Below are positions 1-4,372 of a stretch of DNA of 4,372 nt, in pieces. This DNA comes from a virus (taxonomy: Duplodnaviria; Heunggongvirae; Uroviricota; Caudoviricetes). Under the pieces are notes generated by a model, which was not told the DNA's origin, searched no databases, and saw nothing but the letters and a program-made list of their open reading frames with translations. The translations under genes and the position numbers were made by a program. The stretch lies in IMG/VR virus record IMGVR_UViG_2778261571_000009, positions 1-4,372 of that record. The stretch is one strand, 5' to 3'. Numbering within the stretch: position 1 is the first letter of the stretch; the number at the start of each line of letters is the position of its first letter.

Positions 1-171
1 ATGTCACTTGCAACCACAGTGAAGGAGAGCAAGTTACAGAGACGCATGTACACGCAGAAAGCTCTCTGGTATCGCCATAATGGTGACCGCGAAGGAATGC
101 GGGTATGCCTTAATTTGTCCAGAGTCGAAGTATTAAACCAGCGTTATTTCCTTGGGCCATGTCCATTCTGA
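1..171 (+). CDS. small ORF (56 aa) directly upstream of erf; possibly an Arf-like accessory recombination protein; may extend upstream of the window
   Basis: ATG at position 1, in-frame TGA at 169-171 (MSLATTVKESKLQRRMYTQKALWYRHNGDREGMRVCLNLSRVEVLNQRYFLGPCPF). Below the size cutoff of the supplied ORF track. Position just 5' of erf matches where arf sits in P22-type left operons (recollection, not sequence-verified). Upstream context is not visible. Confidence 0.4.
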   Translation: MSLATTVKESKLQRRMYTQKALWYRHNGDREGMRVCLNLSRVEVLNQRYFLGPCPF

Positions 172-181
172 GAACAAACAT

Positions 182-787
182 ATGAGCAAAGAATTTTACG
201 CAAGACTGGCAGCTATTCAGGAGAATCTGAACGCGCCAAAAAATCAGTACAACTCATTCGGTAAATATAAATACAGAAGCTGCGAAGATATTCTTGAAGG
301 CGTTAAGCCGTTACTGAATGGTCTGTTTTTATCAATCAGCGATGAAGTTGTGTTGATTGGTGATCGGTATTACGTGAAAGCCACGGCAACTATTACCGAT
401 GGCGAAAACAGTCATACGGCAACCGCTCTTGCACGAGAGGAAGAAAGCAAGAAAGGAATGGATTCTGCACAAGTTACGGGAGCTACAAGCTCTTATGCAC
501 GCAAGTATTGCCTCAATGGTTTGTTCGGCATTGATGATGCGAAAGATGCAGATACAGACGAGCATAAACATCAGCAGAACGCAGCAGCAAAGCAATCAAA
601 ACCATCACCTACACCTGAACAGGTTCTAAAAGCATTCACTGACGCAGCATTGCAGAAAAACACCGTAGAAGAGCTTAAACAGGCGTTCGCCAAAGCGTGG
701 AAGATGCTCGAAGGCACACCGGAGCAGCACAAAGCGCAGGACGTTTACAACATCAGACGAGACGAATTAGAAGGAGCGGCTGCTTAA
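182..787 (+). CDS. erf: Erf-family single-strand annealing protein (essential recombination function), 201 aa
   Basis: ORF 152-787 on the track; I prefer the ATG at 182 (MSKEFYARLAAIQENLNAPKNQYNSFGKYKYRSCEDILEGVKPLL...), which matches my recollection of the P22 Erf N-terminus. The TTG at 152 would only add a 10-aa extension. Stop TAA 785-787. Confidence 0.85.
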   Translation: MSKEFYARLAAIQENLNAPKNQYNSFGKYKYRSCEDILEGVKPLLNGLFLSISDEVVLIGDRYYVKATATITDGENSHTATALAREEESKKGMDSAQVTGATSSYARKYCLNGLFGIDDAKDADTDEHKHQQNAAAKQSKPSPTPEQVLKAFTDAALQKNTVEELKQAFAKAWKMLEGTPEQHKAQDVYNIRRDELEGAAA

Positions 788-1170
788 TGGCACATTCGAT
801 TACTGTAAGACTAAACAAGCCCGCAAGAGAGTTTCAGGCCGGGGAAAATATCGGATTCAACATCCGTGCTGGAGTTCAGTATTACGATCGCCAGACAAAA
901 AAGAAAGAATGGACAAACTACAGCGCCGTTGTATTTGCCAAGCCGGGAGCGCAAGCGGATTACTACCGTAGTGTTCTTGTTGAAGGTGGCATTGTGGAAA
1001 TTACCGGAGAAAACATCAGGGTTGATGTTTATCAGGGGCAAAATGGTCAATCAATCACTCTTGAATTACTGAATGCAAAGATTGGATTTGCAGCTTCAGG
1101 AAATGGCCCGCAGCAGCAAAGTAGTAACCAGCAGAACACTCCTGTATACGACGATTCCATCCCATTCTGA
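787..1170 (+). CDS. ssb: short phage SSB-like single-stranded DNA-binding protein (127 aa) with acidic C-terminal tail ...YDDSIPF
   Basis: ATG at 787-789 overlaps the erf stop (TAATG), with AGGAG at 772-776. The translation ends in DDSIPF, close to the canonical bacterial SSB tail (DDDIPF) that recruits host replication and repair proteins. The central EW...VVFAK...VEGG.VEI.G pattern fits an OB fold. The track start at 697 is an in-frame extension through the erf 3' end and is unlikely. Confidence 0.75.
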   Translation: MAHSITVRLNKPAREFQAGENIGFNIRAGVQYYDRQTKKKEWTNYSAVVFAKPGAQADYYRSVLVEGGIVEITGENIRVDVYQGQNGQSITLELLNAKIGFAASGNGPQQQSSNQQNTPVYDDSIPF

Positions 1171-1193
1171 TTTAGAAAAATAAGGATTTAATT

Positions 1194-1490
1194 ATGCCAG
1201 CGCCTCTGTATGGTGCGGATGACGCGCGCCGCTGTTCCGGCAATTCCGTATCGGAGGTGCTGGATAAATTCAGAAAAAACTACGATCGAATAATGTCTCT
1301 ACCGCAGGAAACGAAAGAGGAAAAGGAATTTCGCCACTGTATATGGCTTGCAGAGAAAGAAGAACGCGAGCGAATTTACCAGACATCAATCCGACCATTC
1401 CGCAAAGCCACATATACCCAATTCCCTGAATATATCGACCCGCGCCTGCGTAATTACCGCTCACGCTATGGCGCTATCAGTAATGACTGA
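1194..1490 (+). CDS. hypothetical protein (98 aa), lambdoid early-left small protein
   Basis: ORF on track. AAGGA at 1182-1186, 7 nt before ATG 1194. Stop TGA 1488-1490. Co-directional and tightly packed with neighbours. No family recognised. Confidence 0.6.
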
Positions 1491-1500
1491 GGAATTTACC

Positions 1501-1668
1501 ATGAGAGGACTTGCATACAATCCCGGCATTCTTCCGGCAGAAATGATTATTCGCCAACGCGTAAAGCCAATGCCATCGAGAGAGGAATTGCTTAAGAGAA
1601 AGAGTTTCGGTTCTGTTAATGACAACAAATATCTGAATGCGATGTTGCGCAAAGGAGGCAACCGGTGA
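1501..1668 (+). CDS. hypothetical small protein (55 aa)
   Basis: GAGGAA at 1489-1494, 6 nt before ATG 1501 ([15 protein letters not shown]...). The track lists a longer 1348-1668 ORF, but its 5' part overlaps the previous gene in another frame and lacks an RBS. Stop TGA 1666-1668. Confidence 0.55.
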
Positions 1669-1748
1669 CTGGACATGCAGCGATCCTCGACATGTGCTGT
1701 GGCAGCCGCATGTTCTGGTTAGATAAGAATGACGAACGGGCGAGATAA
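1665..1748 (+). pseudogene. 27-codon remnant resembling the N-terminus of a class I SAM-dependent (DNA?) methyltransferase; probably a truncated gene
   Basis: Strong AGGAGG at 1653-1658, 6 nt before GTG 1665 (overlapping the upstream stop as GTGA). Translation [27 protein letters not shown] then TAA at 1746-1748. 'ILDMCCGS' resembles SAM-binding motif I (hh-D-x-x-x-G-x-G region) at the start of methyltransferases. The ORF ends after 27 codons just before the next gene. Confidence 0.35.
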
Positions 1749-1798
1749 GCGATCGGTTAAGTGCTATAGTAATGCGCTTTTGTATTTATGGAGTGAAT

Positions 1799-2497
1799 AT
1801 GAAAAATATCCTACTGGCATCATTGTTAGTGGCATCGCCGGGTGCATTTGCAGCCAGCTTTGACTGCCAAAAGGCTTCGACAGCAATCGAACATAAAATC
1901 TGCGATAACGAACGTCTGTCAAAATTAGACGAACAGCTTAGCTCTGCCTATTCTAGTGCCCTCAAAGAAAACCCAGAGAACGCAGACACCATAAAAATGG
2001 TTCAACGTCAGTGGGTAAATATGCGTGGAAAACTCACTGATAATAAGGCTCTGGAGCTGGCTTATCTTATCCAAATTAATGGCCTCAAAGGTTTGGGGAG
2101 TTCAGTCAGCGTAACAGCGGCCAATGAGATACCCACGTCGACGCAGAAACATTCTGAAGAGCAGGAAGAAACAAGTAAGGCAGAAGTTAAGTCGGTCAAG
2201 AACGGCAATAAGCTAACCTTAGAGTCATTCCGAGCTAAATATGTAGAAGTAGATGGTGAGTATTACAGCACGACATCCATTCCTAGAGGCAGTTCGTTCT
2301 TGTTCACTTGCGCCAGTCGTATTGCTGATGACCAAGTGAATGTTTGGAAGAAACATGCAGCCAAAGAGGGCAAAATCGACCTATTCTTTGAGGTTGAGAA
2401 TCACTTACACACTGCTATGTTGAACGCCAATTTCCAGAAGTTGAATTCAGACCCTGCCAAAAGAGGTATTTGTAATCTGATTAACGCAGTGCCGTAA
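1799..2497 (+). CDS. secreted (Sec signal peptide) protein with N-terminal DUF1311/LprI-like domain, 232 aa; candidate moron
   Basis: GGAG at 1790-1793, 5 nt before ATG 1799. N-terminus MKNILLASLLVASPGAFA/AS has a basic n-region, hydrophobic core and AxA cleavage motif. The mature N-terminus SFDCQKASTAIEHKICDNERLSKLDEQLSSAY...QRQWVNMR matches the DUF1311 (LprI/YecT-like) pattern sFDC.kA.t..E..IC.d..L..LD..L...Y...QR.W as I remember it. Followed by a hairpin terminator. The track start at 1772 lacks an RBS. Confidence 0.75.
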   Translation: MKNILLASLLVASPGAFAASFDCQKASTAIEHKICDNERLSKLDEQLSSAYSSALKENPENADTIKMVQRQWVNMRGKLTDNKALELAYLIQINGLKGLGSSVSVTAANEIPTSTQKHSEEQEETSKAEVKSVKNGNKLTLESFRAKYVEVDGEYYSTTSIPRGSSFLFTCASRIADDQVNVWKKHAAKEGKIDLFFEVENHLHTAMLNANFQKLNSDPAKRGICNLINAVP

Positions 2498-2507
2498 GTA
2501 AATTTAG

Positions 2508-2537
2508 GGCCACAGTTGTGGCCTTAAATATTTTTTC
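2508..2537 (+). terminator. putative intrinsic terminator after the DUF1311-like gene
   Basis: GGCCAC (2508-2513) / GTGGCC (2518-2523) stem with loop AGTT, followed by TTAAATATTTTTTC containing a T6 run (2531-2536). The T-tract is 7 nt from the stem, so efficiency is uncertain. Confidence 0.5.
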
Positions 2538-2555
2538 AGCCTTTTCTTATTTGTA

Positions 2556-2580
2556 ATAAGCAGTACTTAGTAGTGCTTAT
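2556..2580. promoter_or_regulatory. imperfect 25-bp palindrome in an AT-rich intergenic region upstream of the TGT-like gene; possible operator or regulatory hairpin
   Basis: ATAAGCAGTACTTAGTAGTGCTTAT has perfect 7-bp outer arms ATAAGCA/TGCTTAT and a partly symmetric core. It lies in the roughly 200-bp visibly AT-rich gap 2498-2703. No convincing sigma70 -35/-10 pair could be assigned by eye. Confidence 0.25.
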
Positions 2581-2703
2581 AAAACAGAATAAAAAACATA
2601 TGACTTTGGCGATTACCCAGTAAAGATATTCGAAATAAATGTAAATATCGGCAATGAATAACAATCCTCGCACTCGCGGGGATTTCTTTTATATGGGGAT
2701 AAT

Positions 2704-3504
2704 ATGACCATCCACTTTCACGGCAGCCCAATATGGGGGGATGAGCATGCCCCTACAGATATGCTGATTAAAGCCCTTTACCGTGATGGTGGGGCTTTTG
2801 TTTCATTTGCCAGACCAGAGCAGATGAAAAAGATTGCCATGTTCCCTTGTGATATACGCCTTGATAACGGCGCTTTTAGCGACTGGATGAAAGCATTAAA
2901 GAAAGGCACTCCGGTAGACTGGAGTAAGAGGCGAGCAAAATTCTACGACTTTGTTGGGAAGTGGTTCAGCAGAATTGAATGGTTTCTTATACCTGACGTT
3001 ATCGAAGGGACAGAGGCAGAAAACGACGAGCAGATTGAGTTGGTTCCTGATTGGCTAAAATCAAAAGCGGTTCCGGTCTGGCATACCGACGAATCAATTG
3101 AACGTCTTTTACGCCTTTCTGGCAAATTTGAATGGGTGGCGATTGGATGCTGCGGCCCACACAGGCACATACGCTCTAAATGGTGGGAACAGAGAATGGA
3201 TGAAGTTTTCACTGAGCTTTATATCAATCGTAATTTGAAAGTGAAAATTCATGGTCTTCGAATGCTCGACGTGAGAGTTCTTGGTATGTATCCGTTCGCC
3301 AGTGCGGATTCTACTAATGTTGCTGTTAACGTACCGAAGACAGAGAAGCGATTTCCTGAGATTACTGACAAACTGGCACGTACAGCTGTACTTCGCGCTG
3401 CTATTGAAAAGGTGCACCCGCCATCGATATCAGCATGGGTAGACAGAAAGATGAGAGAGCCGGCGCAAGCCGGTTTTTTATTTGAATTCACCGACGCCGC
3501 TTAA
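2704..3504 (+). CDS. TGT-like (tRNA-guanine transglycosylase fold) protein, 266 aa, lacking the C-terminal zinc subdomain; candidate DpdA-like DNA 7-deazaguanine transglycosylase
   Basis: GGGG at 2695-2698 before ATG 2704. Colinear motif matches to TGT as I remember it: FVSFARPEQ (TGT FHLWLRPGQ), IRLDNGAFS (ILTDSGGFQ), WFLIPDVIEG (IVMIFDEC), FEWVAIGCCG (FDGYAVGGL), MYPFASADSTNV (DMFDCVMPTR). There is no CxCxxC...H cluster after the last motif. Confidence is for the gene being real; the functional call is inference (about 0.5). Confidence 0.7.
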   Translation: MTIHFHGSPIWGDEHAPTDMLIKALYRDGGAFVSFARPEQMKKIAMFPCDIRLDNGAFSDWMKALKKGTPVDWSKRRAKFYDFVGKWFSRIEWFLIPDVIEGTEAENDEQIELVPDWLKSKAVPVWHTDESIERLLRLSGKFEWVAIGCCGPHRHIRSKWWEQRMDEVFTELYINRNLKVKIHGLRMLDVRVLGMYPFASADSTNVAVNVPKTEKRFPEITDKLARTAVLRAAIEKVHPPSISAWVDRKMREPAQAGFLFEFTDAA

Positions 3505-3522
3505 TGCGGATTTCTTTTATCT

Positions 3523-3549
3523 GAACTCGCTACGGCGAGTTTTGTTTTA
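3523..3549 (+). terminator. putative intrinsic terminator after the TGT-like gene
   Basis: Stem ACTCGC (3525-3530) / GCGAGT (3535-3540), loop TACG, extendable by A3524-T3541, followed by TTTGTTTTA. A weaker CCGC/GCGG hairpin spans the stop codon at 3497-3509. Confidence 0.55.
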
Positions 3550-3561
3550 TGGAGATGATAA

Positions 3562-3729
3562 ATGCACTTCCGAGTAACAGGTGAATGGAATGGAGAACCA
3601 TTCAACAGAGTTATCGAAGCAGAGAACATCAACGACTGCTATGACCACTGGATGCTGTGGGCGCAGATGGCACATGCAGACGTAACCAATATTCGAATTG
3701 AAGAACTGAAAGAACACCAAGCCGCCTGA
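3562..3729 (+). CDS. hypothetical small protein (55 aa)
   Basis: GGAG at 3551-3554, 7 nt before ATG 3562. MHFRVTGEWNGEPFNRVIEAENINDCYDHWMLWAQMAHADVTNIRIEELKEHQAA, stop TGA 3727-3729 inside the loop of the following terminator. Not on the ORF track because of size. No family recognised. Confidence 0.5.
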   Translation: MHFRVTGEWNGEPFNRVIEAENINDCYDHWMLWAQMAHADVTNIRIEELKEHQAA

Positions 3730-3742
3730 TGGCGGTTTTTTT
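3719..3742 (+). terminator. intrinsic (rho-independent) terminator
   Basis: AAGCCGCC (3719-3726) pairs with GGCGGTTT (3731-3738): five G-C pairs, one G-U and two A-U. Loop TGAT, then a T-run through 3742 (GGCGGTTTTTTT). Confidence 0.7.
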
Positions 3743-3756
3743 ATTGGAGACAAGAA

Positions 3757-4101
3757 ATGTCAGATTTGGCTATGAAGGTTTTGAAATGGCAATCGACTGG
3801 CGATGTCGGCATCAGTAGCGCAACTCTTGCCTCAATCGCATGTGGACTGAAAAAGAATATCTATGGTCATCACTTCGGCGCTCCACATGACGTAGCCGAT
3901 TTCCGGCGATGCGTTGCACTTGTTGAGCAGATTCCAGAAATCAGAGATTCATTCGACAAGGTTGCAAAGCGCGTTCCGGCATTCAAAGGAATCCTCAACG
4001 AATGGGATTCCCTCGTTGCTCTGTTGAAGTCTGAAATGAAGACGTACGGGAACAAAGCACCAGAGACTTACAGAAGAATCAGCGAGCTACGCAAGGACTA
4101 A
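3757..4101 (+). CDS. hypothetical protein (114 aa)
   Basis: GGAGA at 3746-3750, 6 nt before ATG 3757. ORF on track. Contains a His-rich segment GHHFGAPHD. No family recognised. Stop TAA 4099-4101. Confidence 0.65.
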   Translation: MSDLAMKVLKWQSTGDVGISSATLASIACGLKKNIYGHHFGAPHDVADFRRCVALVEQIPEIRDSFDKVAKRVPAFKGILNEWDSLVALLKSEMKTYGNKAPETYRRISELRKD

Positions 4102-4140
4102 CCCGCCTCACACTCGATGAGGCCTGTTCATATCTGATAG

Positions 4141-4166
4141 AGCCGCAGTATGGCGGTTTATTTTTG
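4141..4166 (+). terminator. possible weak intrinsic terminator upstream of the AlpA/Xis-like gene
   Basis: GCCGC (4142-4146) / GCGGT (4153-4157) stem with one G-U, loop AGTATG, followed by TTTATTTTTG. A separate 6-bp hairpin GCCTCA/TGAGGC at 4105-4123 has no U-tract. Confidence 0.35.
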
Positions 4167-4180
4167 CCTGGAGAATTAAG

Positions 4181-4372
4181 ATGACCGATACCAGCCTGAT
4201 TCCTGAGAAAGAAGTGATGAACAAGCTCGGTGTTTCATCACGTCAGACAATCTGGAACTATACCAAACGGCACGGATTTCCGAAGCCAGTCAGAACCCAC
4301 CCCAAATCATACCTTCGTGAAGCTGTTGAAGGGTGGATTCTTAACGGTGGCGTTAATCAGAAATGCTCCTGA
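4181..4372 (+). CDS. AlpA-family helix-turn-helix DNA-binding protein; putative prophage excisionase (Xis) or regulator, 63 aa
   Basis: GGAGA at 4170-4174 before ATG 4181. ...EVMNKLGVSSRQTIWNYTKRHGFPKPVRTHPKSYLREAVEGWI... matches the AlpA/Xis-type pattern (L.s.stiy.....g.FPkPv.....s..W...ev..W). Location at the 3' end of the left arm is where xis sits just before int. Confidence 0.8.
   Translation: MTDTSLIPEKEVMNKLGVSSRQTIWNYTKRHGFPKPVRTHPKSYLREAVEGWILNGGVNQKCS

Follow-up and report, generated by a model that had tools for sequence, protein, structure and literature searches.

The window (the whole stretch of 4,372 nt that was analysed, positions 1 to 4,372 of IMG/VR record IMGVR_UViG_2778261571_000009) comes from an HK97/HK022/HK106-like lambdoid prophage of E. 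coli and represents the distal part of its early-left (pL) operon, with the features collected in Table 1. The recombination genes are followed by a small DUF2737 gene, by an open reading frame of only 27 codons, which we call the stub, and by a cassette whose one gene, the cargo, encodes an LprI-family protein. The best complete-genome match is E. coli 2018-01-1CC, which is 99.4% identical across 1-3746 and whose PGAP annotation is empty between the DUF2737 and LprI genes; none of the RefSeq records examined has a feature annotated at the stub. In no record of an isolated phage does the match reach 80% of the window; for HK97, HK022 and HK106 it is only 40-63%. The comparison of the 266-aa protein with PDB sequences gave nothing usable, and an Rfam search of the whole window at E<=1 returned a single sub-threshold match (AbsR28, 18.6 bits against 50, at 2624-2703), which was taken as noise.

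Table 1. Features of the window, in order of position, with the two intact methyltransferase homologues (positions in their own loci) in the last lines.
Feature	Position	Strand	Basis or remark
erf	182-787		ORF list and family matches; Erf recombinase, 900 nt upstream of the cassette
ssb-like gene	787-1170		
abc2, anti-RecBCD	1194-1490		
DUF2737 gene, 55 aa	1501-1668	+	Pfam PF10930, E=1.9e-30; annotated DUF2737 family protein in a near-identical E. coli prophage
Generic gene-boundary linker GCAAAGGAGGCAACCGGTGA	1648-1668	+	SD AGGAGG 1653-1658, GTG 1665, overlapping TGA 1666-1668
Stub ORF, 27 codons	1665-1748	+	
Crossover interval, shared CGA	1741-1743	+	Alignment of four methyltransferase genes and three donor-type sequences
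Cargo 5' flank	1744-1798	+	Conserved in SSU5 (L006), pEC21Z137-115K (L009) and pFJMB80005_2 (L037)
LprI-family cargo gene, 232 aa	1799-2497	+	
Intrinsic-terminator-like hairpin (12 pairs, 2502-2529) and T run	2502-2536	+	Terminator scan; cassette 3' end
AT-rich non-coding stretch	2535-2695	+	
266-aa gene	2704-3504		
Two small genes	3562-3729 and 3757-4101		
AlpA/excisionase-type gene	from 4181		
Intact methyltransferase homologue, 161 aa	L010 3518-4003		E. coli NRZ14408 prophage
Intact methyltransferase homologue, 164 aa	L005 4018-4512		Stx2c phage EH0430; in the same early-left region as the stub, there after an ead/Ea22-like gene

The start signals of the stub can be read directly from the DNA, and they are as an earlier note on this sequence had described them. 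AAAGGAGG occupies 1651-1658 and ends in the Shine-Dalgarno (SD) sequence AGGAGG, which a spacer of 6 nt (caaccg, 1659-1664) separates at good distance from the GTG of 1665-1667; the stop codon of the DUF2737 gene overlaps this start as GTGA, and the frame closes after 27 codons with TAA at 1746-1748. The SD used by the stub frame is contained in the last codons of the DUF2737 gene (..LRKGGNR and stop). The note had also seen in the first residues a resemblance to motif I of a methyltransferase, and database searches bear this out. The 27-aa peptide matches three PHROG families of DNA methyltransferases (phrog_11564, E=1.4e-11; phrog_7811, E=1.7e-10; phrog_954, E=3e-9), aligning with positions 1-26 of phrog_11564 and, through residues 3-26, with positions 50-73 of phrog_954. 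Motif I in such enzymes is of the ILDPFxGSG type, and the stub has ILDMCCGS. At the DNA level, 1648-1753 shares 89.7-92.5% identity with the beginnings of intact methyltransferase genes (blastn against whole collections, E=1e-34 to 2e-31), with 92.5% for the gene of NRZ14408, 91.6% for O157:H7 prophage copies and 89.7% for the Stx2c phages EH0430 and EH0474; the gene of Qin-like prophages is 83% identical.

Intact homologues with the same N-terminus are found in the NRZ14408 prophage and in phage EH0430, and their first 26 codons are 92% identical to the stub in protein and about 92% in DNA. In these and in the other copies compared above (O157:H7, EH0474, Qin-like), the annotated or evident start is the same GTG, which again overlaps a stop as GTGA and is preceded by AGGAGG. 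The 161-aa protein matches the PADLOC models MTase_II (E=2.6e-73) and oMTase (E=4.6e-50) from end to end, and phrog_954 with E=9e-88. When motif IV was scored with the pattern (D/N/S)PP(Y/F/W/H), the intact homologues were found to carry VVFDPPH or VIFDPPH at about residues 67-73, DPPH being the form in this family, at 70-73. The assignment to a methyltransferase family rests on PHROG and PADLOC, as searches of Pfam and NCBIfam gave sub-threshold matches only; in one of them, residues 7-69 of an intact homologue align with Pfam Methyltransf_25 from its position 1, that is from motif I, weakly and below the cut-off (E=0.0098). The comparison with PDB sequences gave nothing usable. Members of the family are roughly 150-165 aa long and occur in 251 phage records from many bacterial phyla, 244 of which match at least 80% of the query, and some of these records are annotated as N4-cytosine enzymes.

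Of this enzyme, the window holds a fragment. With tblastn, residues 1-26 of intact enzymes match 1665-1742 at 88-92% identity, and no trace of the residues beyond 26 of two intact enzymes was found in the window; the body of the gene is therefore gone, not mutated. Neither the 3' part of the methyltransferase nor the DNA that lies 3' of intact copies has a significant match elsewhere in the window. Since the frame has 27 codons against 161-164 residues in intact members, the stub is a gene fragment and not a member enzyme. It resembles the phage orphan type II-like methyltransferases (PHROG 954, PADLOC MTase_II/oMTase; 'class I SAM-dependent methyltransferase' in PGAP), in that its 26 residues align to their N-terminus, and differs from them in lacking motif IV (DPPH) and the remainder of the Rossmann fold. 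With 16% of the protein present and motif I only, it cannot be an enzyme. That the 27 codons arose by chance as an ORF, or that a nonsense mutation alone inactivated a complete methyltransferase gene, is suggested by nothing more than the shortness of the frame and can be dismissed as next to impossible, being refuted by DNA and profile matches of E=1e-34 or better and 1e-11, by the missing residues 27-161, and by the different, identifiable origin of the DNA past 1744.

Homology to the methyltransferase stops, and homology to the LprI cassette starts, within a few bases at 1741-1744. Alignment places the switch at the CGA of 1741-1743: G1738 and G1740 agree with the methyltransferase genes and disagree with the donor-type sequences, whereas G1744 and the following GATAAGC agree with the donors (pFJMB80005_2) and disagree with the methyltransferase genes. 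Similarity to the methyltransferase can be extended by blastn to 1753 with a gap of 1 nt, resting on a chance AGCGAT, and the uncertainty of the breakpoint is for this reason about 10 nt. According to the alignments, codons 1-26 of the stub (1665-1742), with ILDMCCGS among them, are the 5' end of the methyltransferase, and codon 27 and the TAA come from the cargo flank. The Enterobacter plasmid pFJMB80005_2 has exactly GAGATAAGC here, upstream of its LprI gene, and the TAA of the stub is therefore cargo-flank sequence and not a decay mutation. SSU5 has GAA in the place of this codon, where SSU5_100 ends in ...SREAVG. The junction preserves the reading frame of this tail, so that the flank holds the last codons of the phrog_3451-type gene upstream in the donor, with its native stop, TAA 1758-1760, in the frame of the stub. 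The evidence thus supports a reading of the 27-codon frame as the 5' remnant of a methyltransferase gene at a cargo-exchange junction, much as the earlier note had proposed, except that its 'decayed' start is better described as that of a gene cut by recombination. The two parent sequences, that of the methyltransferase and that of the gene before LprI in phage-plasmids (at its 3' end), also share the microhomology TGACGA.C.G.CGA (1730-1743). With 12 of 14-16 positions matching, it is short and may be a coincidence; it would be consistent with illegitimate or very short-homology recombination and is too short to serve as proof of it.

The strong ribosome-binding site in front of the stub belongs to a linker, GCAAAGGAGGCARCCRGTGA, of roughly 20 nt that lies partly inside the last codons of the upstream gene. 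An exact-pattern scan found this linker in at least 120 IMG/VR contigs. It joins DUF2737 to DUF7446 genes, DUF2737 to ead genes, and ead, eae or hypothetical genes to the methyltransferase, and a close variant is found between the methyltransferase and the ead gene behind it. Among the matches listed, the genes that start after it have 32 distinct 10-residue N-termini, representing at least 10 clearly unrelated proteins, and the upstream genes have about 37 different tails, nearly all ending ...(R/S)KGG(N/S)Q. Some DUF2737 genes end ...RSGKK and stop instead, and the DUF2737 tail therefore looks exchangeable. The SD is thus kept as coding sequence of the upstream gene (its RKGGN(Q/R) tail) and as a generic coupling signal. 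The earlier note had taken the intact ribosome-binding site as a mark of exchange; as part of a generic linker that is found at many unrelated gene junctions, it is uninformative on the stub.

Blocks of homology end at 1648 and at 1668, the two ends of the linker, and homology to phage ev099 and strain CT30, in which the upstream gene is ead/Ea22, starts at 1648. It can be taken as the left mosaic boundary of the module formed by stub and LprI cassette in this backbone and, to judge by such comparisons, may be a recombination site. Recombination at short conserved boundaries is a classical idea for phage mosaics, which the end-points of the linker would fit. A similar arrangement is described for T4-type phages (PMC2839356), where mobile regulatory cassettes mediate modular shuffling and short conserved boundary sequences with expression signals lie at the end-points of insertions, deletions and replacements. 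The GCAAAGGAGGCARCCRGTGA linker behaves in the same way at gene boundaries; unlike the T4-type cassettes, which carry a promoter and a stem-loop, the lambdoid linker combines an SD with a start codon and an overlapping stop, and codes for a protein tail as well.

The cargo gene begins 50 nt past the stop of the stub, and not immediately after it as the earlier note had it, and has its own SD (GGAG, 1790-1793). Its 5' flank contains an extended -10-like sequence, TGCTATAGT, at 1762-1770, with TGnTATAGT in three donor sequences, which is a pattern match only; a consensus scan of 1400-2800 found no sigma-70-like -35/-10 pair upstream of 1799. The protein has a Sec-type signal peptide (MKNILLASLLVASPGAFA/AS), read from its sequence, and matches phrog_4675 with E=6.8e-95. 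The match to LprI/DUF1311 (Pfam PF07007) is marginal, at 23.4 bits against a cut-off of 22 for residues 23-78, and partial, covering model positions 1-70 of 106. PGAP names the protein 'lysozyme inhibitor LprI family protein'. In the LprI of M. tuberculosis, however, lysozyme inhibition was attributed to an MliC domain; it has been shown for that domain and not for LprI domains, and ScwA of Salmonella, a protein with an LprI domain, was found to have no role in lysozyme resistance (PMC7933661). Since Pfam finds no MliC domain in the cargo protein, the label of lysozyme inhibitor is only putative here. The comparison of this protein with PDB sequences gave nothing usable.

Relatives of the cassette are found in phage-plasmids. 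The segment from 1730/1742 to 2534 is 82-84% identical to the cassette of Salmonella phage SSU5 and of 127 plasmids of Enterobacter, Escherichia and Citrobacter, most of them about 105-120 kb in size. Of the plasmids, 126 cover the cassette, and in every one of these the match breaks off at 2534, just past the terminator, which lies within the segment common to the plasmid relatives. In the three annotations inspected (SSU5, pEC21Z137-115K and pFJMB80005_2) the LprI gene follows a phrog_3451-type gene or a remnant of one (SSU5_100) and precedes ydfZ. The nearest of these relatives being only about 83% identical, the true donor of the cargo lies outside the sampled sequences. To the right of the cassette, 2535-2602 has no match outside ev099-type prophages, after which the lambdoid backbone resumes (2603-2695, with 87% identity to 933W, ST104 and others). 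The cargo therefore has its right junction between 2534, where plasmid homology ends, and 2603. A compositional signature at the left junction was looked for and rejected: sliding GC, per-gene GC and GC3 show no meaningful shift. The signal-peptide gene, which the earlier note had judged by eye to be more AT-rich, has 43.9% GC against 46.0% for 1-1741 and 46.6% for 2704-4372, and its GC3 of 45.5% is inside the 42-50% of its neighbours. What is truly AT-rich is the non-coding DNA at 2535-2703, with 32.5% GC.

When the junction was searched for as a pattern with its variable positions left open, it was found in 22 IMG/VR contigs and was identical base for base in all of them. Upstream of about 1648 the contigs differ, with no fewer than four sequences among them (two variants of DUF2737, ead/Ea22, and a further one). 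The junction has no match in a set with one genome per species, in which the E. coli representative also lacks it, and was thus seen in E. coli-type prophage collections only; it occurs in 107 of 5426 complete E. coli genomes, behind DUF2737 or ead/Ea22 genes. The order ead/Ea22, stub and LprI is seen in phage ev099 and strain CT30. Among isolated phages, ev099 alone carries the junction and the start of LprI, and no other has a near-identical cassette. The earlier note had reasoned that conservation of the 27-codon ORF in related phages would speak for a real micro-ORF. The ORF is indeed kept, in the 107 genomes and 22 contigs, but a micro-ORF is not implied, for the flank is equally conserved: in related prophages the ORF is 98-100% identical with the adjacent non-coding DNA included. 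Because of this, the kept frame probably reflects a single recent origin and not selection on a micro-ORF.

The methyltransferase itself is far more widespread. About 940 of the 5426 E. coli genomes match the methyltransferase part of the stub only (the 1046 that match at all, less the 107 that have the junction). The statement of the earlier note that methyltransferases are common at this position of lambdoid phages is thus true in part: the matches examined lie at several places in prophages (early-left, after replication genes, Qin-like), and among isolated coliphages the family is rare.

From these observations we consider it highly probable that the stub is the stump of a methyltransferase gene cut by recombination at 1741-1743, that its ribosome-binding site was kept in the linker, and that the fused module then spread over several backbones. 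The source would be a small (about 161-164 aa) orphan DNA methyltransferase gene from the accessory regions of lambdoid prophages. One recombination at 1741-1743, with the crossover inside the 14-nt microhomology patch, would have joined codon 26 of the methyltransferase to the last codons of a phrog_3451-type gene, either by a deletion within one phage or by a replacement between two elements, and about 135 methyltransferase codons, the catalytic DPPH motif among them, would have been lost. With the cassette came a 5' flank, a ribosome-binding site, the gene and a terminator, all of its own, and it is this flank that supplies the stop of the stub. The AGGAGG/GTGA start would survive because it is part of the linker that doubles as the RKGGN(Q/R) codons of the upstream gene. 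The fused stub and LprI cassette would then have spread as one module, including onto this Erf/Abc2/DUF2737 backbone, by homologous recombination in or near the linker, probably aided by Rad52-like recombinases such as the Erf of the window. Recombinases of the Erf/Red-beta (Rad52-like) type have been found experimentally to recombine diverged sequences efficiently, and about a third of temperate-phage mosaics have flanking traces of homologous recombination (PMC3945230). An intermediate with an intact methyltransferase, a phrog_3451-type gene and LprI was not found among the E. coli matches listed (a spread sample of 1,050 matching records) or among the phages, plasmids and IMG/VR loci examined. 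Among the E. coli matches listed, LprI without the stub occurs on a plasmid only. Genes of phrog_3451 type do follow the linker in the lambdoid contigs L080 and L115, with a different 3' end and no LprI.

It is also possible that the cargo was acquired in situ, the body of a DUF2737-linked methyltransferase being replaced at 1741, in which case the copies linked to ead/Ea22 would be secondary recombinants. Since DUF2737 genes with the RKGGNQ linker precede many alternative genes, a methyltransferase behind DUF2737 is plausible, and 33 E. coli genomes have the order DUF2737, stub and LprI. However, the intact methyltransferases examined follow ead/eae-like or other genes and never DUF2737. The ev099-type allele, moreover, has in common with the contexts of intact methyltransferases the extra upstream bases GCCCAGCTTCGC and the two synonymous states (GCA and AGT), whereas the allele of the window carries derived changes; by identity band the ev099 allele is also the commoner, with 81 genomes against 26. 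For these reasons we regard acquisition in situ as unlikely. The resemblance of the ev099 allele to the intact contexts leads us to infer that the truncation took place behind an ead/eae-type gene and that the module came to stand behind DUF2737 later. The stub, then, probably reached this backbone already fused to the cargo, and the exchange point of this particular phage would therefore be the linker at 1648-1668 and not 1741.

Whether the stub does anything in its present place can be considered separately. Given its SD, spacing and coupling, it is probably still translated. One could imagine that stub and GCAAAGGAGGCARCCRGTGA linker make up a portable 'adaptor', the linker being a dedicated recombination and translation-coupling cassette by which any accessory gene could be set behind any other and an RKGGNQ tail added to the upstream protein, and the stub being kept to bring ribosomes near the LprI start. 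This seems to us improbable; if it were true, the LprI cassette would be expressed from the antiterminated pL transcript as well as alone. We think it about as improbable that the stub is kept as a leader or spacer ORF, by which ribosomes coupled to DUF2737 termination would be carried to within 50 nt of the LprI start, shielding the pL transcript from Rho-dependent polarity or adjusting the translation of LprI. The near-consensus SD 6 nt from the GTG and the GTGA overlap do make translation likely, none of the 22 IMG/VR copies and neither E. coli allele has lost the frame, and in the donor context, too, a translated gene ends at a similar distance from LprI (stop at 1758-1760). Against this, the non-coding DNA at 1749-1798 is equally invariant (identical in 22 of 22 contigs), so that the conservation is that of recency; SD and start are explained by the generic linker; and LprI has its own SD, with the same 5' flank in plasmids without the stub. 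One of the three variable sites in the ORF is nonsynonymous (A6T, the other two being synonymous), and the stub has F19L at a position that is invariant in the intact enzymes aligned. RNA structure at 1735-1805 did not differ from that of shuffled sequences (z=-0.44). We infer that the stub is functionless; the copies, at 98-100% identity, are too similar for a test of selection.

Both morons and mosaic junctions are reportedly familiar from comparisons of the lambdoid phages HK97 and HK022. Like a moron, the cassette is self-contained (5' flank, one gene and strong terminator) and sits between conserved early-left backbone genes; it is present or absent among relatives and has sharp homology breakpoints at or near gene boundaries. 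Of the marks by which morons are recognised, presence/absence polymorphism with sharp boundaries (1741-1744 and 2534-2603) and an own terminator were both found. A further mark is an own promoter with expression from the repressed prophage, for which the cassette has as candidate the pattern match at 1762-1770. Unlike morons, the cassette has its left breakpoint inside a resident gene, of which a stump of 26 codons is left, and its relatives are in SSU5-like phage-plasmids and not in other lambdoid phages. Morons are the subject of 'The moron comes of age' (PMC3594210). The locus is ordinary lambdoid mosaicism with a moron-like cassette, and involves no new mechanism. Less usual are the breakpoint inside a resident gene, the phage-plasmid relatives of the cassette, and the presence of the same scar on several backbones.

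For annotation, the value of the analysis is that an unannotated pseudogene stub has been identified and a mosaic junction placed to within a few bases. The cassette is common to SSU5-like phage-plasmids and lambdoid prophages, and offers a clean case of a single module that has reached several backbones by way of a short linker conserved at gene boundaries. It also calls for caution, as a perfect ribosome-binding site before a dead gene may mean nothing when it lies inside the coding sequence of the upstream gene.

The methyltransferase family has been inactivated repeatedly in E. coli prophages. Examples are a 118-aa truncation in Qin-like prophages and PhiR42_1, an internal stop in O157:H7 strain 2159, a frameshift in strain H15, and the 'methyltransferase' of PHROG 7811, which has 41 positions. 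The stub resembles these other decayed copies in that the same family is inactivated; most of the gene is still present in those copies, which point mutations or 3' truncation have inactivated, whereas in the stub everything after codon 26 was lost by recombination.

The linker GCAAAGGAGGCARCCRGTGA (window 1648–1668; loci L038–L115 of the compared contigs), which spans the end of the DUF2737 gene and the start of the 27-codon methyltransferase stub, is present in more than 120 IMG/VR contigs. Among the IMG/VR matches listed, it is preceded by at least about 37 different protein tails, nearly all of which end in (R/S)KGG(N/S)Q, and the proteins encoded after it have at least 32 different 10-residue starts; no fewer than 10 of these proteins are clearly unrelated. 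Within the ea/nin accessory regions, the linker appears to be a portable sequence for gene boundaries and recombination. In the lambdoid early-left regions of IMG/VR contigs L080 (4682–5227) and L115, the gene right behind this linker is of the phrog_3451 type and homologous to SSU5_100 of Salmonella phage SSU5, which represents the gene found ahead of LprI in phage-plasmids. The 3' end of these lambdoid genes differs from the phage-plasmid version and they are without LprI. Evidently, an accessory gene pool is common to SSU5-like phage-plasmids and lambdoid phages.

The protein encoded at 1799–2497 owes its PGAP name, "lysozyme inhibitor LprI family protein", to a Pfam match that is marginal, partial and confined to the LprI domain. 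Lysozyme inhibition has been assigned to the MliC domain (PMC7933661), which this protein does not contain.

The distal pL region is a row of terminator-bounded cassettes. Between 2400 and 4372 we counted 11 intrinsic-terminator-like sites, versus 1.9 ± 1.2 in shuffled sequences, and a repeat family recurs in the same part of the window (see table). A cassette flanked by direct repeats carries a 266-aa gene (2704–3504) that matches PHROG 887, "queuine tRNA-ribosyltransferase", with E = 1.4e-102; its product has no match in Pfam, NCBIfam, PADLOC or PDB sequences. The product is a Tgt/DpdA-like protein, encoded here in a lambdoid early-left operon. The cassette is absent from phage ev099 and E. 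coli strain CT30, in which position 2695 is joined directly to 3508.

Repeats and terminator-like sites of the distal pL region
Feature	Positions	Strand	Remarks
16-nt direct repeats GGATTTCTTTTAT(A/C)TG	2680–2695 and 3508–3523		flanking the 266-aa gene (cassette 2680–3523)
Intrinsic-terminator-like sites	2502, 2663, 3454, 3523, 3719, 4140	plus	near small-gene ends
Repeat family AGCCGC..GGCGGTTTTTTT	copies at 3458, 3495, 3720, 4141

The non-coding stretch at 2535–2703 has the lowest GC content of the window (32.5%). Its first 68 nt (2535–2602) have no match beyond ev099-type prophages, and an Rfam search of the whole window returned only AbsR28, far below threshold (18.6 bits versus 50). A further mosaic boundary lies at about 3741–3746, directly 3' of the terminator at 3719–3738, where the match to the window ends in both HK106 and the closest E. 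coli genome, 2018-01-1CC; past this point the latter has torI where the window has a 114-aa gene and one of AlpA type.

The methyltransferase family of the stub has been inactivated repeatedly in resident E. coli prophages (L011, 3518–3991; L004, 3019–3463; L003, 3001–3357). The copy in O157:H7 strain 2159 has an internal stop, that in strain H15 has a frameshift and a stop, and in Qin-like prophages and phage PhiR42_1 the gene is 3'-truncated, encoding 118 aa.
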